A stretch of DNA of 64,000 nt from an uncultured Gammaproteobacteria bacterium (GCA_964645605.1 CAZYCE010000006.1:2981-66980), one strand, 5' to 3'; counted from the first letter of the stretch, positions 41,914 through 58,803 are shown. Numbers and translations: made by a program. Notes: generated by a model not told the origin, from the letters alone.

Positions 41914-42518
41914 AAAAAATGGTCTGGTTAACAACTGTTTCGGTGCTGCTACTGGTATTCGTGGCACCGGCGGTACTTGCCTCATCTCTTAAAATGATTC
42001 CGGTTAACAATCAACCGGGCTATAATCCAAATTTGAGACTCTCTATTTATAAAATTAGAGATTTCTCGCAAAAAATTGTAGCCAAAGAAGAAAACCTTAC
42101 CGCAATCGGAACCTCAATCAGAAATCCTAATCTGAAAAACAAAACAGACGTAATTTTTACTTTATATGACAACTCAGGCAGCGTGATAAGAACATCTGTC
42201 CTTAATGGTCAGAATCTGGAGGATGGATCTTTTGTCAAATTCGTTTTTCCGGTCATTCCCGACTCCTTGGGAAAAGAATACTTATTTACGATAACTTCTC
42301 CGGGAGCAGGACCTGAAGAAACGATTGAGGTGTTTATTATGAATGCCCCTGAGGCATCCTCAGGCATTATAGAATATACTTACGAAGGTGAAACCCACCC
42401 CGGAGGAATTCCACTGGTTGCCTACAGTCAACCAGGGAGCAAGTTGGAGACTATAAAAAATGTTTATTCTAATTGGCTTTCCAGACTTCTGCATCTCCGT
42501 TCTCAAAAATCAGAGTAA
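41910..42518 (+). CDS. Hypothetical secreted protein
   Basis: Signal peptide MKKMVWLTTVSVLLLVFVAPAVLASS; 202 aa; 3' end overlaps a convergent gene by 50 bp. Confidence 0.45.
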   Translation: MKKMVWLTTVSVLLLVFVAPAVLASSLKMIPVNNQPGYNPNLRLSIYKIRDFSQKIVAKEENLTAIGTSIRNPNLKNKTDVIFTLYDNSGSVIRTSVLNGQNLEDGSFVKFVFPVIPDSLGKEYLFTITSPGAGPEETIEVFIMNAPEASSGIIEYTYEGETHPGGIPLVAYSQPGSKLETIKNVYSNWLSRLLHLRSQKSE

Positions 42519-44316
42519 AACCCAGATTTATCGGATTGACTTTGGGACTCAAAACTTTTGGAAAATAAAGGATATCCGCCTTGGTTTCGGAGAAAGCGCT
42601 TTTAACCTCGGTAGCATTTTCGCTTGAGAAGATAACCTTCTTGGTTTCCAGTCTGGATTTCCAATCGTAGCCCATGATATCAACCTGCTCATAGTCGTCA
42701 AAATATGTTCTTCTTGCCGACAAGGCCGATACATAAGAGGTATCAAACCAATCCCAAATGTTTGGAGTCGATCCGCCTAAATTGAGGTATTGATCATAAG
42801 GGGGAGTCAACAGGATTGCATTTTCCTGAGTATTCTCCTTTACGTAGTTAAGTGCTTCAATTTCACCATGGGAAATTTTGGCAAAAGCAGGCCTGGAATA
42901 AAATTCGTGCAGGAGTCCAACCTGCGTTGGAATCATTAATATTATCAATATTGGTCCGATAAAATATTTTGCTTTTTTGGGAAATTCTGCAAATTGAACC
43001 CCTGCAAGTATTCCAAAAAATAGAACAAAATATTGCAGGAACTGGCTGGTGTTGCTGGCAACACCTTTTTGGATGAAGAGCATGGGGAGTATTAACGAGA
43101 AAGAAATAATCAATTTGATAATTGGGTGTGTTTTAATAAATTCTTTTAGGCCAATAAATCTCATACCGAGATTTCCAAAAAAGAAAATAATGAAAGCAAT
43201 ACCTTCGTATTCCAATATCCTTAAAATAGATTTGATGCCTCCTCGGGCAACATAAAATTGTCTACGAAGCTCCAAATCCAGCCAGTTTAACCTTGAAGGT
43301 TCCACAACCATTGTTCTTATATACCACCAAGGTTGAAAAATGAGGAAAGCTGTTGAGCCCGAAGTATTGGGAAAATAAAGTACAATTGATAAAATTCCGC
43401 CTACAAAAGTTAAGATTAATGTTTCGAGCTTTTTTTCTTTAATAAACTGCCAAAGGCCGGTAAAGCCGAGTGCGGTAAGAGCTACAACTCCTGCGTAGAC
43501 CTTAAAGCTTACTAAAGTCCCAAATAGTATTGTGCAAATTATAAATAATATGTTTTTTCCTTTTCCTTTTCCTTTTTCCTCTTTAAATAAAATATAAAAA
43601 TATACTGCGGCAAGAATCATAAAATCGGAAATAATTTGAGGCGGGTTGCCGCCGGCACTCTGCGGTTGGGTTGCCCAAAAGATGCTTTCGCCCCCGATAG
43701 TTTTACCCTTGATGTAAGTAACAATGTATCCGAAACTACCCGCGAAATATGTGAAGATTGTTGCCCAGATAGGTGCAGTTTTGTTCTTGGACAATTTTTT
43801 GGTCAAAAAATATGCAGAAGCGCCTAAAAAGATTGAGTAAATGAAAGGAAATATTCTGAAATATAGATCGGCATTATCGATGGGGAGGTATTTACTGGCC
43901 ATTGCCGGCAAAATATCACTGAAGAAATGATAGTTCACGAGTTTTTCGCCGGCGAAAATGGGGTTTTGAAACGGCCAGCCTCTTTTAATTTCCTCCATGA
44001 GTGCAATATGCCATGTCCCATCGTGTCCGTGTGCGCTCCAGAAAAGTAAATCTCCGTTTTGGACAGTTCCGCTCGGAGAGATTACTGCCAGTTGTCCGGC
44101 AATTCCCAAGGAAAAGACGGCAAGAACCAGAAATGTTTGAAGATTAAACTTAACTTTAATTTGCTTGACGGTCTTTACTGCGGGTTTGGCACCGAAAATG
44201 ATTGCAAGAAGTACTATCGGAATAATCAAAAATGGGACATTGAGCACAATTAGAATGTAGGAAATAAGAGTAAGGCCTGCAAAACCCACAATTCCTCCCA
44301 TGAGTATTTTTTCCAT
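42469..44316 (-). CDS. Large polytopic membrane protein, paralog family D
   Basis: LLFWSAHGHDGTWHIALMEEIKRGWPFQNPIFAGEKLVNYHFFSDIL, matching the 33986 product; 615 aa. Confidence 0.5.
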   Translation of the reverse strand: MEKILMGGIVGFAGLTLISYILIVLNVPFLIIPIVLLAIIFGAKPAVKTVKQIKVKFNLQTFLVLAVFSLGIAGQLAVISPSGTVQNGDLLFWSAHGHDGTWHIALMEEIKRGWPFQNPIFAGEKLVNYHFFSDILPAMASKYLPIDNADLYFRIFPFIYSIFLGASAYFLTKKLSKNKTAPIWATIFTYFAGSFGYIVTYIKGKTIGGESIFWATQPQSAGGNPPQIISDFMILAAVYFYILFKEEKGKGKGKNILFIICTILFGTLVSFKVYAGVVALTALGFTGLWQFIKEKKLETLILTFVGGILSIVLYFPNTSGSTAFLIFQPWWYIRTMVVEPSRLNWLDLELRRQFYVARGGIKSILRILEYEGIAFIIFFFGNLGMRFIGLKEFIKTHPIIKLIISFSLILPMLFIQKGVASNTSQFLQYFVLFFGILAGVQFAEFPKKAKYFIGPILIILMIPTQVGLLHEFYSRPAFAKISHGEIEALNYVKENTQENAILLTPPYDQYLNLGGSTPNIWDWFDTSYVSALSARRTYFDDYEQVDIMGYDWKSRLETKKVIFSSENATEVKSAFSETKADILYFPKVLSPKVNPINLGFTLIFENGDAEVWKAN

Positions 44317-44340
44317 AGATAAAGTATATATAATAATATT

Positions 44341-45756
44341 ATGAGAAGGAAACTTTGGTTGGTTTTGGCCGGAATTGTTCTTCTCGGTCTGGCAATTAGA
44401 ATTTATAAAATTCAGGCTCTACCTATGTATGGTGACGAGCTTACAATGGTTTACGATATTTATTCGATAGAAAAAACCAGTATGGATTCTACCGGGCAAA
44501 AGCTTCCCCTGACTTTTAGGATGGGTGCCGGCCGCCCTGCCGGATATATTTATTTTTCTGTTCCTTTCGTGGCAATTTTCGGTCCGACCGTTTGGGGTGT
44601 CCGGTCTCTTTCCCTCCTTTCCGGGTTAGGAATCATTGTTTTAATGTACTTTTTGGGTAAGAAACTTTTTGGTGATAAAGTCGGCATAATTGCAAGTTTT
44701 TTGGCTGCGGTTTCTCCATGGGATATTTATCTAAGCCGCGGCGGTTTTGAAGCCCATTTTGCCCTATTTTTGGCGCTTCTCGGGGTTACAATGTTCCTGT
44801 ATAAAAAATATGTTTGGTGGGCAATTGCCTGGGGAATAGCAATTTTAACCTATCCGACGTTCAAGTTAACTCTGCCGGTTCTTTTCCTGGCGCTTGTCTG
44901 GTTTAGCGGCTTTAAGAAATTGGCAAAAGACAAAGTTTTTATTATCGGCCTTGTCGTACTTTTACTTTTCGGCGGAGTTACCCTAAGGGAAACTTTCAGG
45001 GCGGGCAGTGAACAAAGATTTTTAAGCATCAATATTTTTTCAGATAATAATCTGACTCAAAACATCATACAAAAGGTGAACTACGAAAGAACTATTTCAA
45101 CATTGCCCGAGATCATTAAGCCAATTTTTATAAACCGTGAGATCGAATATTCGAGGGTGCTTTTGGATAATTATGTTAAAAACATTTCTCCCGACTTTTT
45201 GATTTTAAGAGGGGACGGAAATCCGAGACATAATCCCGGAGAAATGGGAATGCTTTTCCTGGTAGACTTGCCCCTGATACTTATAGGGTTAATGTATCTC
45301 CTGAAGGAAAGAACGAAGGAGTCGGTTCTACTTTTGGCTTGGGTTTTAATTACACCACTTGCCACAATGTTTTTACCCGAGGCGCACGCTCTTAGAAACA
45401 ATCTGATGCTCCCACCACTTCTTTTAATCATCTCGTATGCCCTCACCAGGATTCCAAGAAAGGCTTGCTACGTCGCCGGAGGACTGATTGCACTTCAACT
45501 AATCTATATTCTGGTACGCATCTATACAATTGCTCCTGCAAAATTTGCCTCTTTCTGGTCAGCTGAAGCGAAAACAGAAGCTCTTTTGGCGATGGATAGG
45601 GTAAACAGCGGGCAAAAGGTGGTCTTGAATGTTAATAAAATCGACAACATTGAGTATGCCTATGAGGTTTATGCAAGACTTGATCCCCGTTTGGTAATTT
45701 CTCAATATGGTAAATTACCAAAAATTTTCGGTAATGTCACTATTACCGACAGATAA
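44341..45756 (+). CDS. GT-C-fold membrane glycosyltransferase (ArnT/PMT-like)
   Basis: LPMYGDELTMVYDIYSIEKTSMDSTGQKLPLTF first-loop motif; about 11 TM. Confidence 0.6.
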   Translation: MRRKLWLVLAGIVLLGLAIRIYKIQALPMYGDELTMVYDIYSIEKTSMDSTGQKLPLTFRMGAGRPAGYIYFSVPFVAIFGPTVWGVRSLSLLSGLGIIVLMYFLGKKLFGDKVGIIASFLAAVSPWDIYLSRGGFEAHFALFLALLGVTMFLYKKYVWWAIAWGIAILTYPTFKLTLPVLFLALVWFSGFKKLAKDKVFIIGLVVLLLFGGVTLRETFRAGSEQRFLSINIFSDNNLTQNIIQKVNYERTISTLPEIIKPIFINREIEYSRVLLDNYVKNISPDFLILRGDGNPRHNPGEMGMLFLVDLPLILIGLMYLLKERTKESVLLLAWVLITPLATMFLPEAHALRNNLMLPPLLLIISYALTRIPRKACYVAGGLIALQLIYILVRIYTIAPAKFASFWSAEAKTEALLAMDRVNSGQKVVLNVNKIDNIEYAYEVYARLDPRLVISQYGKLPKIFGNVTITDR

Positions 45757-45768
45757 TAATCTCTGAAA

Positions 45769-47403
45769 TTATTTTGGTGAGACGATGTAAAAGGCGGGTG
45801 AGCCATTTGATATGTATATTTTTTGAAGAATTTCTCCGTCTTTGAGTCCGTCTACCGGGAAACTCCAAGGACTTCCGATGAAAAGTACACCCTTTTTGCC
45901 TTTATCCAAAGTCCAATTAATATGGCGGAACGTATATTTGCCGAATTTATAGTAGGGTTCATCTCTATCTGAACCCAGATATTTCTGTTCCGTCTGATAG
46001 ATTGCGGGATCGTACTTTAAATAGAAAAGTACATAAAGAAATGGGTTACTGACCATATTTGGGGCATCAACTCCACGTCTCTGGTCGAAAACAATTTCAC
46101 TGTATTCATTTTGATGGTCCTTTACATAAAAAACGGCTTCTCTCCAACCTTCATCAAATGATTCACCTTTGTCTCTTGGAAAGTCCGAGGAGATGATAAG
46201 AAAAGCATGGATGAAGACTATTAATACCACTGCGCCGGAAACGCAAGCAATTAGATATTTCAGATAAGCTTTGTCGATCTTCTTGAAAAATTTATAAATT
46301 TCAATTGCGCCAAGTGTGGTAAAAAATATTAAGATAGGGAAAAGATGTAGGAGACGTCCTGTATGCTTTTGGTTGTTTGTTAGGGAATCGGGCAAAATTC
46401 CGATCAAGGCCCATACTGTGAAAATTCCCTTGTGCGGAATTTTATTTTTAATAAAGCTTACAATTCCGGCGATAAAGAATGGGATTTCAAAAACATAAAA
46501 TATTCCAAGTCCGATAGGGCCGGGCATTGTTGCTTCCAAGCCATTGAAGAACAAAAATCCGGGATCCAAATAACTTAAATACCGTTTGATCCAGAAGAAA
46601 AACAACATAGGTATATCGGAGACTGAATTAAAGTACTTCAATATTACATAGCGGCTGAATTCGATGTCGTTACCGATGAATACCATTTGCATTCTTGTTC
46701 CCGCTCCCTGGAATAAGGTTGTATAAACAAGCGGAAGCCCTAAAACCAGACAAACCGCCCCAAAAGCAATAATAACTCTCCAATTCTTTTTAAGTTTGGA
46801 AAAACTGACGATGAATGCACCTATTAAAAACGGAGGAATAAAAAGTCTTGGTGCGAAAGACGTGTACATTGTTAATACAAAGAAAAACGCCGAAAGAACT
46901 GCCCAAATAATTTTTCCGTCTAACATTTTTATGAAAAACCAGACCCCAAGTAGAATAAAAAGACTTGCAATTATTGCTTCGTAGGCAAATCTTGAGTAGA
47001 AAATATGCCAGGCGGAAATTGCCAGAAAGAAACTGCCGACCAGGGCAATATCTTTTCTTTTGAATACAGATAATAGGAACAGAAAAAAGATGGGGATGGA
47101 GAGCGTCCCTATTAACGCATTTGGAAACCTGACTGCAAAATCGGTAAGTCCGAATAATTTTATTGAAGGAACCATGAGATAGACGGGGAGAGGGTTTTTA
47201 TAATCACCTATTGATTCAAAAGTTAGCGGCATAAACTTACCGTGTTCGTCTTTGCCGGTTTCCAGGATTGAATAAGCAGAGTAGCCAAAAGAAATTTCAT
47301 CACCGGTTAAGCTTGGAGGATTTACGGTTATTTTATAAAACCTCAAAAATCCCCCAATCAGGGTAATTAGTATGACCAGTATCAACAAAGTTCTTTTTTT
47401 CAT
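45769..47403 (-). CDS. GT-C-fold membrane glycosyltransferase, paralog family A (PMT_2/ArnT-like)
   Basis: PSLTGDEISFGYSAYSILETGKDEHGKFMPLTF; C-terminal DG..AF motif (SNGSPAFYIVSPK). Confidence 0.65.
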   Translation of the reverse strand: MKKRTLLILVILITLIGGFLRFYKITVNPPSLTGDEISFGYSAYSILETGKDEHGKFMPLTFESIGDYKNPLPVYLMVPSIKLFGLTDFAVRFPNALIGTLSIPIFFLFLLSVFKRKDIALVGSFFLAISAWHIFYSRFAYEAIIASLFILLGVWFFIKMLDGKIIWAVLSAFFFVLTMYTSFAPRLFIPPFLIGAFIVSFSKLKKNWRVIIAFGAVCLVLGLPLVYTTLFQGAGTRMQMVFIGNDIEFSRYVILKYFNSVSDIPMLFFFWIKRYLSYLDPGFLFFNGLEATMPGPIGLGIFYVFEIPFFIAGIVSFIKNKIPHKGIFTVWALIGILPDSLTNNQKHTGRLLHLFPILIFFTTLGAIEIYKFFKKIDKAYLKYLIACVSGAVVLIVFIHAFLIISSDFPRDKGESFDEGWREAVFYVKDHQNEYSEIVFDQRRGVDAPNMVSNPFLYVLFYLKYDPAIYQTEQKYLGSDRDEPYYKFGKYTFRHINWTLDKGKKGVLFIGSPWSFPVDGLKDGEILQKIYISNGSPAFYIVSPK

Positions 47404-48482
47404 TGTTCCTTTATCTCGTAGGTGCTACCTAGATACTTTTCAAGTCTGAGTGATTCTCTGGTTTTTACATCGATAGATATAACTGCAATTTGGAAAATTA
47501 CGAAAATGATAGTGATGGCTAAAAATATTCTACCGATTATATTCCCCTTTAGATTTAGTAGGCTGAAAATTCCCTGCGAAATTACAAAAATTATTATTGG
47601 GAAGAAAAGAATAAGGCGGTTTAACGACACAATATCTTTTGCAAGGATCGATGGAATTGTCAATATAGTAGAGATTAATAAAATTTTTCTTGTACGTGAA
47701 TTTTGGAGTAGTTTATACAGTCCGTAGGCAAAAGGGATTATGAAACCCAAAATTATCGGTGGACTAAATGAAAATCCTAAAAGCTTGTATTGCGGGGTAA
47801 AAAAAGCCACGGGCATCAGCTGAGAAATATATTTTAAGACAAAGTACTCGCTAAAAAATAGATATTTATTCTCGGAAAGTCTAGCCAGATTTTTATATCC
47901 TTTTTCAGCGGCAGCACCCTGGTAACGGTTTACAGTATTAAGAAGACCGGGATCGGAAAAAATTTGTATCTCGTTACTCAAACTGTTTCTAAATCCGGTT
48001 ACATTTCTAATGGTAAATAGAAAAAGCGGAATTAATAGTACAGTAGTAATCAGTAAAGAAGTTTTCAAGTCTTTTTTGGGCACTATCTTAAATAAAATTA
48101 ACGCTGAAAATATAAGGGGAACAATCAATAAAAAGTTTATGGAGCTGTAAATCCCAATTATCAAACCGGAAATCAAAGTAATGTTCCCCAAAATTCTATT
48201 TTTTCCCCGAACGAGCAAAAGCCCATGGATGGTCAGCAGTGTCGGGAAGAGTAGAAAAACATAAAATGAATGGGCAAGTGTTAAGTAATAAACCCATGGG
48301 GAAAGAAGGTAAATTAAAATCGGAATAAATCGAGTTTTGCCTTTCAAAAAGTGTCCCGCTATAAGCCAGATTATAAGGGCGTTAATTATAAAAATTGGGA
48401 TGTAAAATTGATCCGGAATTGTTACTGTTGTGCGTAGTACATCGGCAAAAAATAAATTTTTCACTGTATAATGAAGAGGCAT
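47400..48482 (-). CDS. Polytopic membrane protein, shorter family-A-related paralog lacking the N-terminal DE loop
   Basis: C-terminal half resembles family A (KYLFFSEYFVLKYISQLMP compared with NYLSHFTPDFLF); start set to the internal ATG because the 5' end overlaps a divergent gene. Confidence 0.4.
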   Translation of the reverse strand: MPLHYTVKNLFFADVLRTTVTIPDQFYIPIFIINALIIWLIAGHFLKGKTRFIPILIYLLSPWVYYLTLAHSFYVFLLFPTLLTIHGLLLVRGKNRILGNITLISGLIIGIYSSINFLLIVPLIFSALILFKIVPKKDLKTSLLITTVLLIPLFLFTIRNVTGFRNSLSNEIQIFSDPGLLNTVNRYQGAAAEKGYKNLARLSENKYLFFSEYFVLKYISQLMPVAFFTPQYKLLGFSFSPPIILGFIIPFAYGLYKLLQNSRTRKILLISTILTIPSILAKDIVSLNRLILFFPIIIFVISQGIFSLLNLKGNIIGRIFLAITIIFVIFQIAVISIDVKTRESLRLEKYLGSTYEIKEQ

Positions 48483-48484
48483 AT

Positions 48485-49969
48485 ATGCATAGGTTACCAT
48501 ATTTAAAAATAGTTGTCTTCACTATTGTTTTGATATTTACCTTCATTCTTAGAGCTCACAATTATGAAAGGGTTCCGACCTCAAACCATTTAGATGAGCA
48601 GCTCTATGCGCTTTCCGGAATTAATTTAATTGAAACAGGAACTCCGGTCTCGTGGTCAACTCTGGATTACCCGAAAAGTGCAGAGGTTTTTAAAGGTGCA
48701 ATCTCATATAAAGGAGGAGCGCCTTCCGCGTCGGTAACTTTGTATAAACCCTGGCTGGATGAGCCGCCTGCCTTTTCTTTAATAGTTGGCGAGGCAGCCC
48801 ATCTTTTCCATGCCGACAGGAACGGTTTTATCCCATCCTCCTACATCCGGTTTCCGATGATTTTTATATCTGCCCTAACTTCGATTTTCGTATTTCTGAT
48901 AGCCAGAAAAGTCAGCGGCTACTGGACGGGGATATTGGCAATGCTGATTTACGGAACTGAACCGATTATGGTAATGGCTTCAAGATCGGCCATGCCGGAG
49001 ACTTTTATTGCACTTCTTTTCTGTTTAAGCGTTTATCTGCTCTTAAAATATCAAGATTCTAAAAAATTTATATATATTGCCCCGATTCCTATTCTGGCCG
49101 GAATTGCGGGGCTTTCTAAACCAACAGGCTACTTTATATTGCCGCTGGCTATTTTTGTAGTTTTTGTAAGGCTTTATAAGGATAAGCCTGTTAAATGGCG
49201 GCCGATAATTAAAAACCTTGCCTATTTAATTCTTGCAACCCTGCCTTTTCTTGCGATTTACATCTGGTACGGCAATCATTTTAGTCCGGAAATATTTTCA
49301 AGGATTCTTTCTATTCAAGGTTCCCGTCCCGCAGGTTTTAACAGTCTTGCCTGGTTTTTCATAACCCCCAGTTTTGATACATCAATTTTCAGGAGCAGCT
49401 GGTATGTTTTTTGCCTTGCCGCGGCCGCCTTCTTTGTTTTCCGACCTAAAGAAAAATCGGCGCAACTTATTAGTTTGAGTTTTGTTTATTGGCTGGCCGT
49501 TATAATGCTGTCCTCGGGTGAAAATGATCTTTTAGCCTGGTACCGTTTTCCGATATTGCCTTTTTTGGCAATTTTTGGCGCATGGGGGATTCAATATCTT
49601 TTTAAGAAAGCTGATTTCTTTGCGACATTCTTTGCTGCAGGGTTTCTGCTTGGAAGCAGAATGCTTTTAGTTAACGCTTTTCGTCCGAATATTGCAGTCG
49701 GAACCTATCGTCTGGCTTTTTGTAGCCTGGTTGCCCCCTCTTTACTTAATTTGGTGTTCAAAAAAGACTGGCTTAAGAAAATTTCTCAAATTGTAATTAT
49801 TGGTGTGGTAATTGTGGGTATGTGGTGGAACGTTAAATATATTTACAATGCTTATGAACTTGCTTGCGAGAGCCAAACTTGTCCTATGGTTCCGTCTACC
49901 GCGCTCTCAAGCCTTCACTATCCCTTGATCTGGCGCTTCTTTGTATTAGGCAAACCTGCCCTACAATAA
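48485..49969 (+). CDS. GT-C-fold membrane glycosyltransferase (ArnT/PMT-like)
   Basis: NHLDEQLYALSGINLIETGTPVSW first-loop motif; internal ATG 48485 chosen to minimise the divergent overlap. Confidence 0.55.
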   Translation: MHRLPYLKIVVFTIVLIFTFILRAHNYERVPTSNHLDEQLYALSGINLIETGTPVSWSTLDYPKSAEVFKGAISYKGGAPSASVTLYKPWLDEPPAFSLIVGEAAHLFHADRNGFIPSSYIRFPMIFISALTSIFVFLIARKVSGYWTGILAMLIYGTEPIMVMASRSAMPETFIALLFCLSVYLLLKYQDSKKFIYIAPIPILAGIAGLSKPTGYFILPLAIFVVFVRLYKDKPVKWRPIIKNLAYLILATLPFLAIYIWYGNHFSPEIFSRILSIQGSRPAGFNSLAWFFITPSFDTSIFRSSWYVFCLAAAAFFVFRPKEKSAQLISLSFVYWLAVIMLSSGENDLLAWYRFPILPFLAIFGAWGIQYLFKKADFFATFFAAGFLLGSRMLLVNAFRPNIAVGTYRLAFCSLVAPSLLNLVFKKDWLKKISQIVIIGVVIVGMWWNVKYIYNAYELACESQTCPMVPSTALSSLHYPLIWRFFVLGKPALQ

Positions 49970-50009
49970 TTTACATGACGTTTTGAAGCTGGTAACATTG
50001 AGGTAATAT

Positions 50010-51659
50010 ATGAAGAAGAAACTTTATCCGTTTTTTTTGGGGCTGATTCTTATTACCGCTTTCTTTCTGAGAATTTACAAAGTTACTTCCATTCCCCCTT
50101 CCCTAAACTGGGATGAAGTTTCAATAGGTTACAATGCCTATTCCATCCTTAAAACCGGACGCGACGAGTGGGGGGTAAAATTCCCGTTAAATTTTAAATC
50201 GTACGGAGAGTATAAACTTCCCGGGCAGATTTATGCCTCGATACCGGCGATTGCCGTTTTTGGATTAAATGAATTTGGGGTAAGGATTACTCCCGTAATT
50301 TACGGCACACTAAGCGTTTTATTGCTTTATCTTTTAGTCCAGGAATCTTTTGGTAAAAAAGAAATATCCTTAATGTCAGCCTTTTTCCTGGCGGTTTCCC
50401 CTTGGCACATACAGCTGACTAGGGCATCTTTAGAGTCTTCTTTTGCGCTTTTCTGGGTGGTGATGGGAGTTTGGTTTTTCCTTAAAGGTTTGAAAAAACC
50501 AAAGTGGCTGGTTTTTTCAATGCTTCCTTTTGCGGTTTCCGTTTATACCTACAATAGTGCCCGCGCCTTCATTCCGCTTTTTCTTTTTGCCTTGGTGATT
50601 ATTTATAGAAAGTATTTCCGGAAAGTTAAAAAATGGTTTTTTGCGGCGGGGATTTTGTTTGCCGTTCTGATGGCTCCTTTGATTCCGATGGTTGTTTCGG
50701 GAGAAGCCTCCGCCAGATACAAACTTGTAAGCATCACCGATGAAAAGGGTTTGATTCCCAGAATTGAAGAGAGAAGAAACAATTCAACTTTGCCGTCTAC
50801 CGTCAACAAAATGATAAACAATAGATATACGTATGTAAGTTACTATTTTGCAAGAAATTATTTGTCCCATTTTACTCCGGACTTTCTTTTTATCCACGGA
50901 GCAGGACATAGACAGCACCATGTTCAGGGGGTGGGAGAACTTTACTGGTTCCAGGCCCCATTCATTATTTTGGGGATCTATTATTTGTTAAAGAAAAAAA
51001 ATCCCAATTTGAAAGTTCTTGTTCCGTGGTTTTTACTGGCGTTTGTTCCGGTATCCGTAACAAATGACAGTATTCCGAATGCCTTAAGGACCTTAAATGC
51101 GGTTCCTGTTTACCAAATTTTTACGGCCTTGGGAATTTATTATGCTTATAAGCTGATCAAGAATAAAAAAGTTTTTAATGTACTTATCGGTGCGGTAACG
51201 GCTCTATTCTTAATTAATTTTGCCGTTTATTTTACTAACCTTTTTGTATATTATCCGCTCAGGTACTCCCGGGATTGGCAATATGGCAATAAAGAAGCTG
51301 TCGAATATATAAAAAACCACCGGGATAATTACGATTTAATTGTTTACAGCCGTACCTATGGCGAACCGCATATGTTCACTTTGTTTTATCTTGGTTATGA
51401 TCCCGCCAAGTTTCAAAATAGCCCAAACTTAGACAGGTTTGAAACATACGATTGGGTTAGGGTTTTGCGTTTTGATAAATTTTATTTTCCGGATCTGGGG
51501 GATGCGGGTACAAAGTATCAGGATGTAGTTAATGCGAATCCCGGCCAGAGAATTCTTTTTATAGGTAAACCTCAGGATTTTCCTGCGGAAGCGGCAGTGC
51601 TTGAACAAATTAATTTTCTTGACGGCACCGGCGCCTTCAAAATAGTTGAAAAGATATGA
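50010..51659 (+). CDS. GT-C-fold membrane glycosyltransferase, paralog family A
   Basis: PSLNWDEVSIGYNAYSILKTGRDEWGVKFPLNF; GAGGT Shine-Dalgarno-like sequence 5 nt upstream; C-terminal DGTGAFKIVEKI. Confidence 0.65.
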   Translation: MKKKLYPFFLGLILITAFFLRIYKVTSIPPSLNWDEVSIGYNAYSILKTGRDEWGVKFPLNFKSYGEYKLPGQIYASIPAIAVFGLNEFGVRITPVIYGTLSVLLLYLLVQESFGKKEISLMSAFFLAVSPWHIQLTRASLESSFALFWVVMGVWFFLKGLKKPKWLVFSMLPFAVSVYTYNSARAFIPLFLFALVIIYRKYFRKVKKWFFAAGILFAVLMAPLIPMVVSGEASARYKLVSITDEKGLIPRIEERRNNSTLPSTVNKMINNRYTYVSYYFARNYLSHFTPDFLFIHGAGHRQHHVQGVGELYWFQAPFIILGIYYLLKKKNPNLKVLVPWFLLAFVPVSVTNDSIPNALRTLNAVPVYQIFTALGIYYAYKLIKNKKVFNVLIGAVTALFLINFAVYFTNLFVYYPLRYSRDWQYGNKEAVEYIKNHRDNYDLIVYSRTYGEPHMFTLFYLGYDPAKFQNSPNLDRFETYDWVRVLRFDKFYFPDLGDAGTKYQDVVNANPGQRILFIGKPQDFPAEAAVLEQINFLDGTGAFKIVEKI

Positions 51660-53170
51660 AAAAAGAACGGATTTTTTTATTTCTAATTCTTGGATTTTTC
51701 TTGTTTACAAGGTTTTATAAAATTAGCCAAATCCCGCCCTCCGTTTACTGGGATGAAGCTTCGATCGGGTATAACGCCTATTCCGTTTTACAGGACGGCC
51801 GGGATGAGTGGGGGAATTTTCTGCCTCTTCATTTTAGGGCTTTTGGTGAATTTAAATTACCGGTTTATATTTATTCCGTCGCAATATCGGAAAAATTATT
51901 CGGATTGAATTCTTTTTCTGTCCGTCTTCCGTCCGTTATTTATTCCGCCTTTTCCCTGATTCTGGTTTACCTTATTTCCAAAAAGATTTTTAGTGGAAGC
52001 TCGGGACTCCTTTCTGCCTTGGTTTTTTCGGCTTGTCCTTGGTATTTTATCTTTAGCCGTACGGGTTATGAAGTATCTGCCGGTTTATTCTTTTTCCTTT
52101 TGGGAACATACTTTTTCCTGAAAACCGAGAAAAAAAATTACTTTTTCCCGTTTGGCATTTTGTCTTTTATTCTTTCTTTTTATAGTTACAACTCATTTCG
52201 CATCCTCATTCCTATTTTCTTACTGGTTTTCGGTTTGGCCTTTATCTTAAGAAAGGATGTAAAAACAAAAGCTAAATTATTTTATATAGTTTCCGGGATA
52301 GTTTTGTTTCTATTGGTTTTGTTTCCCGTTTATCGTCTTTACAAATTTGATGCCGGTGGCGCGCGCTTGACACAGGTACAAGTCTCGGGAGCGGCGGATG
52401 TATTTAAAAATTATCTTTCCCATTTTTCCCCGCAATTTCTTTTTAATAGCGGAGACTCCAACTCCAGGAGTAGTGTTCCCGGTTTTGGAGAGCTTTTTCC
52501 GGTGATTGCTCCATTTTTGATAATCGGTACTTTTGTTATATTCAAGAAAAAGCAAAAATTTTGGTGGTTGCCGTTTTTGGCAATATTGCTAGGTCCGATT
52601 CCCGCCGCGGTCACCAGGGAGTCTCCCCATGCCTTAAGGGCAATCTTAATGATTCCCTTTCTTTCGATGGTTGCCGGAGTGGGTATTGATAGTTTTGCAG
52701 GTTTTTTCGGAAGAGCTAAAAAGATGTTTATCTTTGGAGTGCTTTTCTTGCTTGCCGTATCTTTTAAAAATTATTTTATCGATTTTACAACAAAATATTC
52801 TTCTGATTCGTCTGCCCAGTGGCAATTTGGCTACAAGAAAATTTTTGAGGATTATCTTGCCGATTTTGCCGAATATGACAAGGTTGTAATTTCCGATGCC
52901 TATGCCCAGCCTTATATTTTTGGGCTTTTTTATCAAAAATATGACCCGGGATATTTCAGACAAAGTGTTGTCTACAATACGGTTGATCAATGGGGCTTTT
53001 CGACCGTCAAAAGTTTTGATAAATTCCTGTTTAAGAAAGTAACAGCGGACGATTTATCCGAAAACTCAATAGTTTTTGCAACCGTACAAGACAAAATAAA
53101 CGATGAAAAACCGGTGGAAGAAATTAAGAACCCCGACGGGACAACTGCTTTTTGGGTGTACACAAAATGA
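51656..53170 (+). CDS. GT-C-fold membrane glycosyltransferase, paralog family A
   Basis: PSVYWDEASIGYNAYSVLQDGRDEWGNFLPLHF; C-terminal NPDGTTAFWVYTK; ATGA overlap with upstream gene. Confidence 0.65.
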   Translation: MKKERIFLFLILGFFLFTRFYKISQIPPSVYWDEASIGYNAYSVLQDGRDEWGNFLPLHFRAFGEFKLPVYIYSVAISEKLFGLNSFSVRLPSVIYSAFSLILVYLISKKIFSGSSGLLSALVFSACPWYFIFSRTGYEVSAGLFFFLLGTYFFLKTEKKNYFFPFGILSFILSFYSYNSFRILIPIFLLVFGLAFILRKDVKTKAKLFYIVSGIVLFLLVLFPVYRLYKFDAGGARLTQVQVSGAADVFKNYLSHFSPQFLFNSGDSNSRSSVPGFGELFPVIAPFLIIGTFVIFKKKQKFWWLPFLAILLGPIPAAVTRESPHALRAILMIPFLSMVAGVGIDSFAGFFGRAKKMFIFGVLFLLAVSFKNYFIDFTTKYSSDSSAQWQFGYKKIFEDYLADFAEYDKVVISDAYAQPYIFGLFYQKYDPGYFRQSVVYNTVDQWGFSTVKSFDKFLFKKVTADDLSENSIVFATVQDKINDEKPVEEIKNPDGTTAFWVYTK

Positions 53171-54768
53171 GAAAGTATCTAAGCTGCATAATTCTTTTTA
53201 CTATTTTTATAGGAGCGCTTTTTTTAAGAATTTATAAGTTGGATCAAGTTCCTGCTTCCCTGAATTGGGACGAGGTGGATGCGGGCTATAATGCCTACAC
53301 TATTGCGAATTGGGGTGTTGATGAATGGGGCCGTAAGTTTCCTCTGGTTTTTCGCTCGTTTTATGACGATAAACATCCGGTCCACATTTATATAACAGCG
53401 GTTTTTGTTAAGTTTTTTGGACTCAGTGATTTTACAACGCGTCTTCCCAGCGCGATTTTTGGAGCTTTAGGGGTCTTAGTTGTTTTTTATCTGGGCAGAC
53501 GTTTATTCAAAAATGATTTGCCTGCATATTTTGCGGCAATTTTTCTGGCGGTCTCACCATACCATCTTCAGTTCTCCAGAGGACTTTGGGAAGTTAACTT
53601 CGCCTTCTTTTTCTTTATATTGGGGCTTCTGTTTTTTTACCTCGGGAGAGATAAAAATAGATGGTTCTTCCCGTTTTCTTTTTTAGGGTTCGGACTTTCA
53701 ATGTACTCATATCATTCGGCCAAAGTCGTGGTTCCTCCGATGATAATCCTTCTTTGCATTTTATATTTCAAGGATTTGATAAAAAACAAAAAAGCCCTTT
53801 TACTCAGTTTTATTGTTTTAGCCGTTTTTATAGCAGGTTTTATTTTTAATCCCGGATTATTGGGTTTCGCCCGTGCCGAACAAAACCGATTTCCCGAAGG
53901 GTCAATAAAGGAAACTTATCTTTATCAAAAAACGGGGAATAGATACTTGGCTACTTTAGAAATTGCAGCCGGAAATTATACAAAATACTTTACTCCGGAT
54001 TACCTTTTTGTACACGGCGATCAAAACCCGCGGAATTCGGTTAAAGTGTTCGGGGAGTTCTATAAAATTGAAGCACTTTTTATTGCCGCCGGAATTGTCT
54101 TTATGTTGGTAAGGCCAAGAAAGGAATGGCTCGTTCTTGCCGTCTGGCTTGCGCTTGCACCGATTCCGGGTGCTCTTTCAGGTTTCACTCCAAACGCAGC
54201 CAGAGGGCTTTTTATGATGGGTAGCATGCATCTTGTTGGCGCATACGGGCTTTATAGCTTAGCGAATTTATTCAGAAACAAGACGGTTCGGGGTGCCGTT
54301 GTAGTTGCCCTTCTGGCCCCCCTTTTTTGGGAATTTTCAAATTATCTTAACTATTACTACACAAATTATTACAAGAAAGACGCTATTGAGTGGCAATACG
54401 GCATGAAACAGATTGTTGCCTACATTAAGAACAATCCCTACTATGACAAAATATATATGACCAAAGAAAGACAACAACCATATATATTTATCCTGAATTA
54501 TCTGGAGTATCCCGTAAAAAAATACCTGGCCTCGGTTCGGTATGACGAAAGTCAGAGTAAAAGTTACAATGTAGCCAGATCCTTCGGAAAATTCCAGTTC
54601 TCGGATTGGAATACGGTTGAGAGTTACCCCGCCCCTTATGTGCTTTATGTTCTTACTCCAAGCCAGTATGATGGGTTAAGGTACAGACTGATGTTTGATG
54701 TGGTTGATTTGATAAAATATCCCGACGGATCAGATGCTTATTTTTTGGTAACCGCCAAAGTATATTAA
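53152..54768 (+). CDS. GT-C-fold membrane glycosyltransferase, paralog family A
   Basis: ASLNWDEVDAGYNAYTIANWGVDEWGRKFPLVF; C-terminal YPDGSDAYFLVTAKVY. Confidence 0.65.
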   Translation: MGVHKMRKYLSCIILFTIFIGALFLRIYKLDQVPASLNWDEVDAGYNAYTIANWGVDEWGRKFPLVFRSFYDDKHPVHIYITAVFVKFFGLSDFTTRLPSAIFGALGVLVVFYLGRRLFKNDLPAYFAAIFLAVSPYHLQFSRGLWEVNFAFFFFILGLLFFYLGRDKNRWFFPFSFLGFGLSMYSYHSAKVVVPPMIILLCILYFKDLIKNKKALLLSFIVLAVFIAGFIFNPGLLGFARAEQNRFPEGSIKETYLYQKTGNRYLATLEIAAGNYTKYFTPDYLFVHGDQNPRNSVKVFGEFYKIEALFIAAGIVFMLVRPRKEWLVLAVWLALAPIPGALSGFTPNAARGLFMMGSMHLVGAYGLYSLANLFRNKTVRGAVVVALLAPLFWEFSNYLNYYYTNYYKKDAIEWQYGMKQIVAYIKNNPYYDKIYMTKERQQPYIFILNYLEYPVKKYLASVRYDESQSKSYNVARSFGKFQFSDWNTVESYPAPYVLYVLTPSQYDGLRYRLMFDVVDLIKYPDGSDAYFLVTAKVY

Positions 54769-55647
54769 ATGAACAAATTGTCACAAAACAAAAAGGTACG
54801 TCTATCGGTTGTTCTTGCCACCCGCAATGAAGAAGAAAATATCGGCAGATGTCTTGAATCGGTAAAAGATATTGCTGATGAAATTATAGTTTTTGACGAA
54901 TTCTCAGATGATTTAACCCGTGAGATTGCGGAAAAGTACGGCGCCAAGGTATTTGAGGAGCCTCATCATGAAATTTTCCATATAACCAAAGAAAAAGCTT
55001 TGGAAAAAGCGGAAGGGGAGTGGATCCTGCAACTTGATGCCGATGAAGTTGTAACCCCGGAGCTTTCGGAAGAAATTAAATTAGTAATTAATAATCAGAA
55101 ATCGGAAATTCCGTCCGGGAAACTTAAATTATTTGAACGCCATCAAAAACTACTCGAAAAAAGGGACGGCCGAATCGGAACCGGCTCGGGCGGCCCGATT
55201 GTCGGTTATTTTATTCCCAGACGCAATATGTTTTTGGGCCGTCCCCTGATCCATGCCGGTGTTTATCCCGATGGGGTAATACGTTTGGTTAAAAAGGGAT
55301 TTGCTCATTTTCCCCAAAAATCCGTTCACGAGCAAATAAGTCTTGACGGGGAGGTTTCCTGGTTGGGCAGTGACCTTTTGCATTACGACTCCCCGACACT
55401 CAAGAAATATCTTATGAGGCTAAACCGCTACACTGATCTTCATGCCCAGGAATTGAAAAACAAAAAGGTCTCCAAAAATCCGTTTTCATTTATTTATTAC
55501 ATATTTTTTAAGCCTTTGGGCGTATTTCTCAACCTGTATTTCCGTCACTTGGGAATTCTTGACGGGGCGAGGGGTTTTTTGTGGAGTTTTTTTTCGGCAA
55601 CGCATTATCCCGTTGCCTACTTTAAATATATTACGGGTAAGGTTTAG
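54769..55647 (+). CDS. GT2 glycosyltransferase (WaaE/KdtX-like subfamily)
   Basis: LSVVLATRNEEENI, LQLDADEVV, YFIPRRNMFLGRPLIHAGVYPDGVIRLVKKG. Confidence 0.75.
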   Translation: MNKLSQNKKVRLSVVLATRNEEENIGRCLESVKDIADEIIVFDEFSDDLTREIAEKYGAKVFEEPHHEIFHITKEKALEKAEGEWILQLDADEVVTPELSEEIKLVINNQKSEIPSGKLKLFERHQKLLEKRDGRIGTGSGGPIVGYFIPRRNMFLGRPLIHAGVYPDGVIRLVKKGFAHFPQKSVHEQISLDGEVSWLGSDLLHYDSPTLKKYLMRLNRYTDLHAQELKNKKVSKNPFSFIYYIFFKPLGVFLNLYFRHLGILDGARGFLWSFFSATHYPVAYFKYITGKV

Positions 55648-55656
55648 AATTAATTT

Positions 55657-56394
55657 ATGAATCTTCAAAATAAAAATATTGTGGTAACAGGCGCCACCGG
55701 AGGGATTTGCAGGGAACTTGTCAAAAACTTAGACAGTGAGGGAGCCAATTTAATTTTGATTTCCAAATCGGCCGATGAACTTGAAAATCAAACCGGGCAG
55801 CTTCAAAGTAAATCCTTTTCTTTTGCCTGCGATTTTACCAAACCCGGCGAGGTTGAGGATTTGGCGAAAAAAATCTCAAAGCAGTTTAAATCCGTCGACG
55901 TATTAATTAATGCGGCCGGGATTGGGGTATATAAATCCCTTGAAGAAGAAACTCTCGAGGAATGGAACAACTCGATGAATATTAATGTGACCTCGCAATT
56001 TTTGATGAGTAAATACCTTATTAAAAATTTAAAGAAGGCCCGAGGGGCGGTCGTAATAAATATCGGATCCGGTGCCGGAGTTATTCCCATGGCGGGCAGA
56101 AGTATTTATTGTGCCACAAAATTTGCGGTAAGGGGTCTGACCCTCAGTTTGGCTGAAGAATTTAGACGTACTTCGGTAGACTTTTGTCTGATAACCCTGG
56201 GAAGCGTGCTTACGGGTTTTGGCCCCATGAGTTTTGAGGAAAAGAAAAAGGAGATGGAAAAGGGGAAGAAGGCGTATTTTACGCCGGATTGGGTAGCCAA
56301 GAAGCTTATTTCGATAATTAAGGATGACGATAGGAGGAGAGAATATACACTTTTCCCTTCAAATTATGCCTCCGAGTGGCAGAAACCCTCATAA
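55657..56394 (+). CDS. Short-chain dehydrogenase/reductase (SDR) family oxidoreductase
   Basis: VVTGATGGICREL (TGxxxGxG), NAAG, YCATK (YxxxK). Confidence 0.8.
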   Translation: MNLQNKNIVVTGATGGICRELVKNLDSEGANLILISKSADELENQTGQLQSKSFSFACDFTKPGEVEDLAKKISKQFKSVDVLINAAGIGVYKSLEEETLEEWNNSMNINVTSQFLMSKYLIKNLKKARGAVVINIGSGAGVIPMAGRSIYCATKFAVRGLTLSLAEEFRRTSVDFCLITLGSVLTGFGPMSFEEKKKEMEKGKKAYFTPDWVAKKLISIIKDDDRRREYTLFPSNYASEWQKPS

Positions 56395-56426: not shown

Positions 56427-57047
56427 CTACTTTTCTCCCAGAAATATTCTTGGGTTTACCGGAATTCCGAATATATTAATTTGAAAATGAAGATGCGGTC
56501 CTGTTGCCCAACCGGTTTGCCCCTCTGCCCCGATTAGGTCACCGGGTTCTACAATTTGACCCGCAGATACATAAATATTACTGAGATGTGCGTAAATTGA
56601 TTGGATTCCGTCTCCGTTGTCTATTATAACGTGCTTTCCGAAACCCCACGATATTTTTCCCGCGTATATAACTTTCCCCTCCATAAACGCCCTAACCGGG
56701 TCTCCTATCCGGTGTTCCGGATTTGCGATGTCTATTCCTGTATGTAAAGGCTGGTAGGGAAGATTGCTTTGACCAAACTCAAGAGTGATCACGCCTTTTA
56801 CGGGCCAGACTATTTTTTTATCAATTGTGGCGACTATCGATCCGTTCAGCGGATTATAGATCTCTATCCTTTGGGTTTTTGAATTAAAAGATGCGAGTTT
56901 ATCTGAAACCATGTCTATTCCGGTTTGGGTTAGGGTAACTACGGCAATAACCGGCATCGCCAATATAAAAAGAAAAGCCAGAAAGACGTAGGTCAGCTCC
57001 TTTCTGAATGACCAAACGGCGGCGATACCGCCGGGAGATATTCCCAT
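56427..57047 (-). CDS. Membrane-anchored M23/LytM-family peptidoglycan endopeptidase
   Basis: HTGIDIANPEH (HxxxD) and GQTGWATGPHLHFQI (HxH) zinc-binding motifs; N-terminal TM; its start codon directly abuts the VirB4 stop. Confidence 0.85.
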   Translation of the reverse strand: MGISPGGIAAVWSFRKELTYVFLAFLFILAMPVIAVVTLTQTGIDMVSDKLASFNSKTQRIEIYNPLNGSIVATIDKKIVWPVKGVITLEFGQSNLPYQPLHTGIDIANPEHRIGDPVRAFMEGKVIYAGKISWGFGKHVIIDNGDGIQSIYAHLSNIYVSAGQIVEPGDLIGAEGQTGWATGPHLHFQINIFGIPVNPRIFLGEK

Positions 57048-58802
57048 TTAAGTGTAGATTTCCCTGGGATCGGTGGTTAAAAGAGGATGTTCTTTTTCGG
57101 ATGCGACTACTTTAATTGCCACATGGTTCTGGTCCGCAATAATAAGTGCCTCACCTTTGTCACAAGTTAAGAGGAACTTTTGTTCATATTCGCTGAGATT
57201 AAATTCGCCGGCAACTTTTTTGATTGTGGTCGTGTCCTGTTTCATCAAAATACGGAGTGCGGATTGGGAAGCAATGGCCCGCCCGTACTCCTGAGCCAGA
57301 AAATCCTGAGCCTGCTGGGATATGATGGTTACCCCCAGATAGTACTTTCTGGCACGTCTGACAAGCCCTGCCATGAATCTTGCGCTTTCCTCCTGGGCCA
57401 GAAGGATCCAACCCTCATCAATGACAAGTATTCTTTTTCTGGGGTTGGTTTTAACTTGCGATTGAACAAAGTTGGCCAGAACCAACATCATAATCGGCCT
57501 GATGGTTTCGCTTAAGTCTTTTATATCAAACACCACAAGTCGGTTATCCAATTCAATGTTTGTCTGGGAGTCAAACATTGACGAAAGGGAACCTTTAATA
57601 AATCTTTCGAGCCGGTCACAAAGATTTTTTTGCCCCATTTTCTTAAGGACCCTATAGAAATCCTTAAGCAGTGGATACTTTTTGTGTTTTTCTTTCTTTG
57701 TTTTTATTGACCAGCCGAACTTTTTATAAGTTGCAATCAGGGCTTTATCGGTAATTGCTTTTTCCTCATCATTAAGAGTTCCCACCATGAGGGAAATTAT
57801 TTCGGTCAGATTTTGGATATGTTCGGCCAGATTGTTTTCTCCGGTGAAACCGGTGAGGGCAAAATCAAAAGGGTTAATCTTCTCCAAAGACCGAGCGGAG
57901 AGCTTTATGTAGGTTCCGGAAACACTGGAAGCAAGCTGTTTGTATTCCCTTTCCGGGTCGATGACGATAACGCTGGTTCTTTGCATAAGATGTCTCAAAA
58001 TTTCCACTTTTGCGGTATAACTTTTTCCGGAACCCGATTGGGCAAATAGGATTGAGTTGGCATTGTTTAGTGAAAATCTGTCAACTATGACCAGGGAATT
58101 GTTTGATCGGTTAATGCCATATAGGATGCCGGTTTCCTGAACGAGTTCCGATGAAATAAAAGGAAAAGTCAAAGCGGCACTTGAACTGTCCAGGTTTCTT
58201 TTTTGGGCAAGCAAATTTTCTCCCCGGGGAAGAATTGATTGCAGTGCTTCGATTTGTTGGAATGTTGCAATCTTTGTGTAAAAGAGCCTTGTGGACATCA
58301 TTGTTTCGAGAAGTTTTGTAATTTTATCCAGATCAGGCAAAGTATCGGCGGAAATGGCCAGATAGATTGAAACTTGAAAAAGTTTTTGCTGACCTCTTTG
58401 GATTTTGTCTCTAAGCTCCGTAGCCGATTCCAAAGGATCGGTTAATTCCGATCCGAAAACACGGCCTTCTTTTTGATAGGTTCTTTTTGTCGATTCAAGT
58501 TCGGTAATTTTCCTATTTAATTTCGGCAGAGCCGTTAATGGGTCCACTTGCTCAATGTGGTAGCTGATGTCGATGTTGTGATTGAAATTGACAAGCATAT
58601 TAAGCCAGCCGGTTGAGGCGATATAGGGGTAACCGGAAATAAACAGGCTTCGCACAAACTTGTTTTCAATCTGAATATAGGTTGGTTCTTCGGCCAGACC
58701 GGAATAGGAAATAAGATCGACCTGATCTTCCTCCCCGAAATCAAACTGAAAAGATTTCTTTAAAGTTTCCTTTTGTGATATTTTGCCCTTTTTGAATTTC
58801 AT
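57048..58802 (-). CDS. virB4: VirB4/TrbE/TraC-family type IV secretion ATPase, C-terminal ATPase portion
   Basis: Walker A AQSGSGKS, Walker B ILVIDEGW, VIVIDPEREY, VRSLFISGYPYIASTGWLNMLVNF region typical of CagE/TrbE/VirB4. Confidence 0.8.
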   Translation of the reverse strand: MKFKKGKISQKETLKKSFQFDFGEEDQVDLISYSGLAEEPTYIQIENKFVRSLFISGYPYIASTGWLNMLVNFNHNIDISYHIEQVDPLTALPKLNRKITELESTKRTYQKEGRVFGSELTDPLESATELRDKIQRGQQKLFQVSIYLAISADTLPDLDKITKLLETMMSTRLFYTKIATFQQIEALQSILPRGENLLAQKRNLDSSSAALTFPFISSELVQETGILYGINRSNNSLVIVDRFSLNNANSILFAQSGSGKSYTAKVEILRHLMQRTSVIVIDPEREYKQLASSVSGTYIKLSARSLEKINPFDFALTGFTGENNLAEHIQNLTEIISLMVGTLNDEEKAITDKALIATYKKFGWSIKTKKEKHKKYPLLKDFYRVLKKMGQKNLCDRLERFIKGSLSSMFDSQTNIELDNRLVVFDIKDLSETIRPIMMLVLANFVQSQVKTNPRKRILVIDEGWILLAQEESARFMAGLVRRARKYYLGVTIISQQAQDFLAQEYGRAIASQSALRILMKQDTTTIKKVAGEFNLSEYEQKFLLTCDKGEALIIADQNHVAIKVVASEKEHPLLTTDPREIYT

Positions 58803-58803
58803 A

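Follow-up and report, generated by a model that had tools for sequence, protein, structure and literature searches.

A set of ArnT/PMT-like GT-C paralogs and a candidate non-catalytic partner protein in a bacterial surface-glycan island

Several related membrane glycosyltransferase genes of the GT-C type lie close together in a 64 000-nucleotide (nt) stretch of DNA labelled as coming from an uncultured Gammaproteobacteria bacterium (GCA_964645605.1 CAZYCE010000006.1:2981-66980; this whole stretch is called the window, and all positions are counted on it). Three of the genes are in tandem, a fourth is on the opposite strand, and directly upstream of the fourth is a gene for a shortened relative of 360 amino acids (aa). 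Does this layout record repeated duplication and inversion inside the locus, with the short protein left as a degenerate or regulatory paralog, as an earlier note on this DNA had proposed, or is it an old arrangement in which the short protein has a function? The answer that we favor, with good though not complete confidence, is that the glycan island holds anciently diverged ArnT/PMT-like paralogs, one of which forms a two-gene module with a putative non-catalytic partner, a module that was inverted once and later swapped between lineages. The five full-length or nearly full-length members of the family and the reduced protein are encoded as follows.

44341-45756, plus strand: fifth family member, 471 aa; DE loop at 44422-44517; short C-terminus without the DG..AF motif.
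45769-47403, minus strand: inverted family member, 544 aa, second gene of a two-gene unit; loop motif at 47218-47319; C-terminal NGSPAFYIV at 45781-45807.
47400-48482, minus strand: reduced GT-C-like protein, 360 aa, first gene of the two-gene unit; its stop codon overlaps the start of the 544-aa gene (ATGA, 47400-47403).
50010-51659, plus strand: family member, 549 aa; loop motif at 50094-50195; C-terminal DGTGAFKIV at 51621-51647; orthologs 65–80% identical.
51656-53170, plus strand: family member, 504 aa; loop motif at 51734-51835; C-terminal DGTTAFWVY at 53135-53161; the second variable slot of the island.
53167-54768, plus strand: family member, 533 aa; loop motif at 53251-53352; C-terminal DGSDAYFLV at 54724-54750.

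In an all-against-all BLASTP comparison, the products of 50010-51659, 51656-53170, 53152-54768 (plus strand) and 45769-47403 (minus strand) align over their full length at 26–34% identity, with E-values of 1e-39 to 1e-86. The likeness therefore goes far beyond low-complexity transmembrane segments, and the four proteins do form the single family that had been claimed for them. All four have the loop motif P(P/A)S(L/V)xxDE..(I/A/F)GY(N/S)AY(S/T)...G.DE(W/H)G...PL.F, and residues D35, E36, Y41, Y44, D52, E53, P59, F62 and K69 are invariant over 38 aligned sequences (the four and 34 orthologs). The acidic residues D35, E36, D52 and E53 of the first outside loop are present in all five window proteins. 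The C-terminal motif given earlier as DG(T/S).AF is shared in the looser form (D/N)G(T/S)xA(F/Y), the exact version occurring in two of the four. Pfam PMT_2 (PF13231) scores for the four proteins and the product of 44341 are 29.2, 54.3, 47.1, 69.0 and 37.8 bits, all above the gathering threshold of 26.1, and Pfam PMT as well as PMT_2 matches exceed the curated cut-offs in the family. The family itself is thus an ordinary one of PMT_2/‘GT39’ membrane glycosyltransferases, a kind already named in databases.

The layout of three tandem copies and one inverted copy stands, with additions. A fifth member, encoded at 44341, had been missed; it matches the four in BLASTP at E-values of 1e-24 to 1e-44 and the family hidden Markov model (HMM) at 201 bits, and its orthologs in the related loci L002, L009, L011 and L013 are 465–476 aa long. 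The inverted unit and the tandem trio are, besides, separated by a 494-aa GT-C gene (48485-49969) from outside the family. Within the trio, the overlap of 50010 and 51656 is ATGA, as had been described. For the third gene, the most likely start is ATG 53167 (533 aa) and not TTG 53152, because this start is called in an identical Logan contig (L001) and in orthologs; 51656 and ATG 53167 also overlap as ATGA.

An AlphaFold model was made for one of the five family proteins, the 549-aa product of 50010 (pLDDT 89.9, pTM 0.90). It has a first helix, a structured outside loop (residues 23–87), a polytopic core and an alpha/beta domain from residue ~420. All 24 Foldseek matches of this model at E ≤0.001 are GT-C enzymes (AglB, STT3, PglB, ArnT, PMT4 and ALG9), and the best global fold match is ArnT 5F15, with a TM-score of 0.59/0.60. 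We take each paralog to consist of ~11–13 transmembrane helices, a first outside loop with D35-E36/D52-E53/K69 and a C-terminal outside alpha/beta domain.

ArnT is the undecaprenyl-phosphate-L-Ara4N:lipid A transferase. Its structure (PDB 5EZM/5F15; CAZy GT83) is the sole sequence-level match of the family among solved structures (E 1e-8); this sequence match covers K69-P71, which aligns with the ‘KPP’ segment of ArnT, and the following helices. The structural match spans ~635 columns, the C-terminal outside domain included. However, the identity is just 11–12%, no lipid A context is evident for the window organism, and the loop motif WDE..GYNAYS..G.DEWG belongs to the window family alone. The NCBIfam ArnT equivalog model PRK13279 gave scores of 21.7 and 25.6 bits against a curated cut-off of 567, which indicates that the proteins are ArnT/PMT-like in fold and not ArnT orthologs. 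Protein O-mannosyltransferases (PMTs; PF02366/PF13231; CAZy GT39) likewise carry an acidic pair, D-E, near the beginning of the first outside loop, and orthologs of the window proteins are publicly called ‘glycosyltransferase family 39 protein’. Foldseek matches to PMTs, however, are partial (TM-score ~0.32 over roughly 265–295 columns), and the Pfam scan of the window proteins gave no MIR-domain match.

What is left of this architecture in the 360-aa protein? Comparison by BLASTP with the family gave no match, and the same is true of searches against Pfam and NCBIfam. The protein does not reach the PMT_2 threshold, and six of 43 members of the reduced family match that model, the best at E 1e-4. 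Profile methods place it nevertheless: residues 26–341 correspond to residues 94–413 of the 549-aa protein (hhalign probability 98.7%, E 3e-16, 303 columns), and the family HMM aligns at positions 102-399 with 31.9 bits. The protein thus retains the middle of the fold; missing are the first transmembrane helix (TM1), the whole DE loop and the soluble C-terminal domain that carries DG..AF. Its start codon and the absence of the DE loop had been reported correctly; its description as the C-terminal half of a family member has to be replaced. We also considered that 44341 and the 360-aa gene could be halves of one split gene, and rejected this since both span the same core (HMM positions 1-368 and 102-399).

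The AlphaFold model of the 360-aa protein (pLDDT 88.8) is matched in Foldseek by GT-C structures only, those at the top being STT3, PglB, AglB, ALG9 and ArnT with probabilities of 0.97–1.00. The predicted topology has ~10 transmembrane helices with the N- and C-termini outside, consistent with the positive-inside rule. All the segments conserved in the reduced family (SPW, IFSDPGL..N..N..QG, SENKY, FTPQ, FSFSPP and LNRL) are on the predicted outer face, and R289 of the 360-aa protein aligns with R360, which is invariant in the full-length family.

The 360-aa protein belongs to a conserved family. About 50 homologs of the 360-aa protein have a conserved length and 16 invariant columns, and a profile search of 1.84 billion representative proteins found 126 clusters at E ≤1e-30. 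Proteins of 365–410 aa with one more helix at the N-terminus (TM1) make up nearly all of these clusters; at 50% identity, the 360-aa form without TM1 falls into a single cluster. As the N-terminal alignment shows, even the TM1-containing reduced forms have lost the 45–50 residues among which D35/E36, Y41/Y44, D52/E53 and K69 lie, so that the catalytic acidic motif of the first outside loop has no equivalent in either the short or the TM1-containing proteins. One conserved acidic residue of the reduced family (D14) aligns with E/D88 of the FGLNEF segment. The closest full-length relatives of the reduced family are the metagenomic proteins P0290, P0296 and P0297 (537–555 aa), which share with it the outside-loop motifs IFSD.G..N..N..RG, NK and SPDL.RL and which themselves carry the (Q/N/E)E..GY.A...G.DE loop and the C-terminal domain. 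In comparison with them the reduced family is shorter by ~45–50 loop residues and ~135 C-terminal residues, and the sub-clade of the window protein by TM1 as well. Truncation of the 360-aa gene at an inversion breakpoint in this genome alone was rejected, given that the whole clade has the short form. Reduction of the opposite sort was seen in L004 (8860-10026) and L005 (1493-2659), where the module is absent and its slot holds another short GT-C protein (388 aa) that keeps the DE loop (PPGINGDEVGIAHNA) and has no C-terminal domain.

A clue to the role of the reduced protein comes from its gene neighborhood. A survey of linkage took in 37 related loci, 32 of them with downstream DNA; in each of the 32, the next gene downstream of the reduced one, −4 to +29 nt away on the same strand, encodes a family member of 535–551 aa, usually with an ATGA overlap between the reduced gene and its ~545-aa partner. 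A scan of genome contigs with the 544-aa protein gave three loci; gene order in relatives was read from exact-protein look-ups and one metagenome scan. The linkage takes in family members that are merely 31–36% identical to the window protein. Seen from the other side, orthologs of the 544-aa protein (540–551 aa) are always directly downstream of a reduced GT-C gene, and the identities of the two module genes to those of the window vary together across genomes (55/80, 52/71, 50/68, 46/60 and 35/50%). We propose a partner-subunit role on the ground of this coupling to one particular paralog. Together with the loss of catalytic residues, the linkage leads us to infer that the 360-aa protein is a non-catalytic partner, or a lipid-carrier-handling subunit, of the adjacent full-length enzyme. 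Of the two roles offered by the earlier note, degenerate or regulatory, the first is contradicted by ~50 homologs of conserved length, 16 invariant columns, 126 clusters and strict linkage to a partner, while a regulatory or accessory role is possible and is the reading that we prefer. A more specific version, which we put forward only tentatively and would not bet on, is that the reduced family is a dedicated pseudo-enzyme subunit forming an obligatory heteromer with the adjacent full-length GT-C protein and, for example, presenting or recycling the polyprenyl-phosphate carrier; in the clade of the window, the N-terminus of this partner may then have been remodelled by the head-to-head gene junction described below. 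A precedent for two paired GT-C chains is the Pmt1-Pmt2 heterodimer (PDB 6P25), with the difference that both of its chains retain the catalytic loop, whereas one partner of the window pair is loop-less. Our literature searches turned up no bacterial GT-C glycosyltransferase paired with a catalytically dead protein of GT-C origin, and for Woesebacteria, Microgenomates and other bacteria of the Candidate Phyla Radiation they gave no account of expanded GT-C sets or of reduced GT-C partners; PMC6031116 deals with Saccharibacteria mannosyltransferases only. In L011 (4321-5544) the 544-aa ortholog is cut to ~407 aa, and gene callers gave only small open reading frames (ORFs) there, beside an intact gene for the 359-aa partner; recent decay of the catalytic member of the pair, or a frameshift in the assembly, may account for this.

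Of the competing explanations, the one that survives best is that the reduced GT-C protein acts independently, either as a scramblase, flippase or polyprenyl-phosphate recycling factor, or as a glycosyltransferase with a non-canonical catalytic site in its conserved outside loop (D177, N182, N185 and E204). The strong conservation of outward-facing loop residues and the retained equivalent of R360 would suit such a protein. GT-C-type systems do need a donor flippase (PMC11127046), no GtrA-like flippase was seen beside these genes, and NCBIfam weakly relates the full-length family to ‘flippase activity-associated protein Agl23’. However, coupling to one paralog in 32 of 32 loci, with ATGA overlaps and not island-wide, fits a stoichiometric partner better, and all the catalytic-loop residues that are invariant in full-length relatives have been deleted. 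We consider independent action unlikely, though still worth bearing in mind.

The second alternative, recent and repeated duplication and inversion within the island with the 360-aa protein as the decaying remnant of one copy, is suggested by the look of the locus: the family genes form a cluster, in which the stop and start codons of a tandem trio overlap and a further copy runs on the other strand, and the 360-aa protein has neither a Pfam match nor the catalytic loop. Comparison with other genomes points the other way. L002 (GCA_029980365.1), L004, L009, L010, L011 and L013 have the same genes in the same order as the window. In a neighbor-joining tree the family falls into five orthogroups with members from 5–8 genomes each; since every paralog has its own orthogroup across genomes, the duplications predate these lineages. 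The paralogs are merely 26–34% identical to each other, against 50–80% identity to orthologs at the same position elsewhere, a divergence that also excludes that the related loci come from the same organism. The 360-aa family, moreover, is conserved in length and has invariant residues and 126 clusters, and the inverted layout is found in at least five other genomes. We regard recent local duplication as very improbable, and the earlier picture of repeated duplication and inversion is not borne out. Nor is the inverted item a single copy of the family: it is a two-gene unit, in an arrangement common to at least five other, independently assembled genomes.

How did the unit come to be inverted? 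Its upstream border involves two further features.

48480-48487: palindrome CATATATG, which holds two head-to-head start codons 2 nt apart, the ATG of the 360-aa gene on the minus strand and that of the 494-aa gene on the plus strand.
48485-49969, plus strand: another PMT_2-type GT-C protein, 494 aa, outside the family (PMT_2 48 bits, family HMM merely 18 bits).

The 494-aa protein has an 80% identical ortholog in L002. The module is co-directional with its neighbors in L002, L006, L012, L014, L015 and most of the TM1-containing cases; it is inverted in the window and in L009, L010, L011, L013, L019, L021-L023 and L027. The 544-aa protein tree unites the genomes with an inverted module in one clade, and one old inversion is therefore the simplest account. 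At the inverted loci the start codon of the module abuts the start of a gene for a protein of 487–498 aa, with anything from a 16-nt overlap to a 2-nt spacing, and the short form begins with codons (MFP/MPL-H/Y-Y) that, read on the other strand, give a TATAAT and a GAGG-type ribosome-binding sequence in front of that neighboring gene. In the window (48460-48510), TATAAT at 48467-48472 and GAAGAGG at 48473-48479, upstream of the 494-aa gene, are in reverse complement the opening codons of the 360-aa gene; the 494-aa gene, in turn, begins with codons (MHRLPYLK) that make up the conserved sequence upstream of the 360-aa gene. With 5′ ends shared in this way, the expression signals of the two genes must lie inside each other's coding sequence. 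The head-to-head layout is kept in at least nine genomes.

Both orientations occur among related genomes, and a 17-nt imperfect inverted repeat (15 of 17 bases; 45697-45713 and 48494-48510) lies on either side of the module in the window, a short way into the flanking genes. These two observations could suggest a phase-variable segment flipped by a site-specific recombinase to switch the type of surface glycan. The repeat, however, is just 14th of 115 such pairs in 6 kb of AT-rich DNA, where it is probably a chance occurrence, and L009, L010, L011, L013 and L002 have no conserved inverted repeat where the module ends; the absence of conserved flanking repeats makes a recombinase-driven switch unlikely. 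Further, the two orientations carry versions that differ by 50–65% at the protein level, not the same DNA flipped, and the genes scanned around the module are all glycosylation genes, with no recombinase among them. We give phase variation hardly any credence. That the opposite-strand layout could be an assembly artefact, a concern because the window comes from a metagenome-assembled contig of 67,652 nt, can practically be dismissed: an independent Logan assembly has no mismatch over 48278-55846, across the right junction, and the same layout is present in JGI, ENA and Logan assemblies from other samples.

The history of the module after the inversion appears to have involved exchange. L002 is the closest relative of the window by flanking genes (70–86% protein identity), yet its two module proteins are only 35% and 50% identical to those of the window; in L011, L009 and L010, which are more distant, the corresponding values are 50–55% and 68–80%. 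L002 is sister to the window in trees of flanking genes and a deep branch in the tree of the 544-aa protein. The earlier note had called for a look at breakpoints at paralog boundaries, and BLASTN shows where identity breaks off. Identity to L002 is 74% over 40050-45759, up to the stop codon of the 471-aa gene, is lost over the module, where a 511-nt inverted stretch is the sole match, and is back at 48536; with L011 the window is colinear across the module. A second break against L002 spans 51880-53220, the body of the 51656 gene. Only the first ~220 nt of this gene, with the DE loop, can be aligned to L002. Its counterparts in L002, L009, L010 and L013 are 446–458 aa long, ~50% identical and without the last ~50 residues, and the closest relatives of the 504-aa product (504–505 aa, 59–65% identity) are found elsewhere. 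Since the closest relative by flanking genes has a divergent, co-directional module, cassette replacement is indicated; whole-gene or whole-module replacement within a conserved frame would be the best reading of these comparisons.

The family occupies the right-hand part of a surface-glycan island of ~37 kb, in which almost every gene from ~17866 to 56394 is a glycosylation gene. Ten of its ORFs are at or above the PMT_2 threshold; there are also three PTPS_related-type membrane proteins, one GT87, two large polytopic paralogs without a Pfam match (33986 and 42469), seven GT2, one GT4 and one MOP flippase. With the further paralog sets counted in, ~18 polytopic GT-C-like genes are found within 37 kb. 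These sets are 35712/37408/39026 (PTPS_related, 30–39% identical to each other), 17866/20377/28073/31098 (PMT_2, 22–31% identical) and the pair 33986/42469 (29% identical, on opposite strands). Two more genes follow the tandem trio.

54769-55647, plus strand: GT2 glycosyltransferase (PF00535, 68.7 bits), directly after the trio; its position is kept in relatives (synteny).
55657-56394, plus strand: short-chain dehydrogenase/reductase, the last conserved gene of the block.

On the analogy of known systems, the following scheme may be proposed. Cytoplasmic GT2 enzymes would load sugars onto polyprenyl phosphate, and a flippase would expose the lipid-linked sugars on the outer face of the membrane. 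There each GT-C paralog would transfer the sugar of a polyprenyl-phosphate-linked donor onto a surface glycan or protein. The products of the genes that are in tandem and translationally coupled would probably act on one product. As for its history, the module was probably inverted a single time, long ago, in one clade, in which its start codon came to abut that of the 494-aa gene and TM1 disappeared; whole modules were probably exchanged between lineages later, by recombination. A lipid-linked monosaccharide donor that is made in the cytoplasm, flipped and used outside by a GT-C enzyme has been described by Kelly et al. (2024; PMC11127046). The island may follow the logic of such three-component Gtr-type/GT136-type systems: it contains GT-C genes, an ArnC/PgfS-like GT2 (21934) and a MOP-type flippase (32536). 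It differs from them in the number of GT-C-like genes (~18 polytopic ones against one) and in that its candidate synthase and flippase are not adjacent to the GT-C genes discussed here, their assignments being below curated thresholds.

Several observations weigh against our preferred reading of paralogs with a non-catalytic partner, or limit it. The GT2 protein of 54769 was examined as a donor synthase and is not supported as one, as GmaR and SunS are the solved structures closest to it and dolichol-phosphate-mannose synthase matches only marginally; it looks more like the GmaR/SunS type than like a polyprenyl-phosphate sugar synthase. The GT2 protein of 21934 matches models for PgfS, ArnC and dolichyl-phosphate hexose transferase, with scores that fall far short of each cut-off; as an ArnC/PgfS-like protein by these sub-cut-off matches, it is a plausible candidate for the donor synthase. 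The chemistry of the family is probably ArnT/PMT-like, with donor, acceptor and catalytic activity deduced from family membership. The fold matches of the 360-aa model are weak (TM-score ~0.45, E 0.01–0.2), and the idea of a partner subunit is drawn solely from gene linkage and catalytic-residue loss. The trees are neighbor-joining trees without bootstrap support. Finally, a minority of TM1-containing members (L029, L038/L039 and P0156) have an upstream neighbor on the opposite strand, so that inversion and loss of TM1 are not strictly tied.

Other features of the region were recorded as well. Two convergent genes, 41910-42518 (plus strand) and 42469-44316 (minus strand), overlap by 50 nt at their 3′ ends (42469-42518), and this overlap recurs in L002, L009, L010, L011 and L013; the product of the former has 202 aa, a signal-peptide-like N-terminus and no Pfam match. 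The genes directly next to the island, on the minus strand (56427-61179), are those of an M23 peptidase, a P-loop ATPase of the TraG/VirB4 type, a member of the PrgI family and a pilin-like protein of type IV secretion. The island of L002, by comparison, goes on past ~56400 with GT4, DUF2079, Mannosyl_trans2, epimerase, GT2 and DUF2304 genes; this difference in content places a gene-order break at ~56400.

The names attached to homologs of the window proteins, on which the taxonomic placement is based, are Candidatus Woesebacteria, Microgenomates or Patescibacteria. By these names the source genome appears to be Woesebacteria-like (Candidate Phyla Radiation), and its size is probably under 1 Mb. 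L006 (CAZDFU010000005.1), also labelled uncultured Gammaproteobacteria bacterium, has a Woesebacteria-like GT-C island that includes the module of reduced GT-C and 544-aa protein (46% and 60% identity); its bin is probably mis-assigned.

For a genome of this probable size, ~18 GT-C-like genes in 37 kb mean a large investment in the assembly of glycans outside the membrane. Two slots of the island, the module and the 51656 gene, carry swapped and highly diverged versions among close relatives, which is the pattern of a surface-antigen locus, and the swapping suggests that diverse glycans are selected for in these episymbiotic or ultra-small bacteria. Most worth following is the reduced GT-C family: well populated, unannotated, loop-less and strictly coupled to a full-length enzyme, it is a candidate for a pseudo-enzyme partner in membrane glycosylation.

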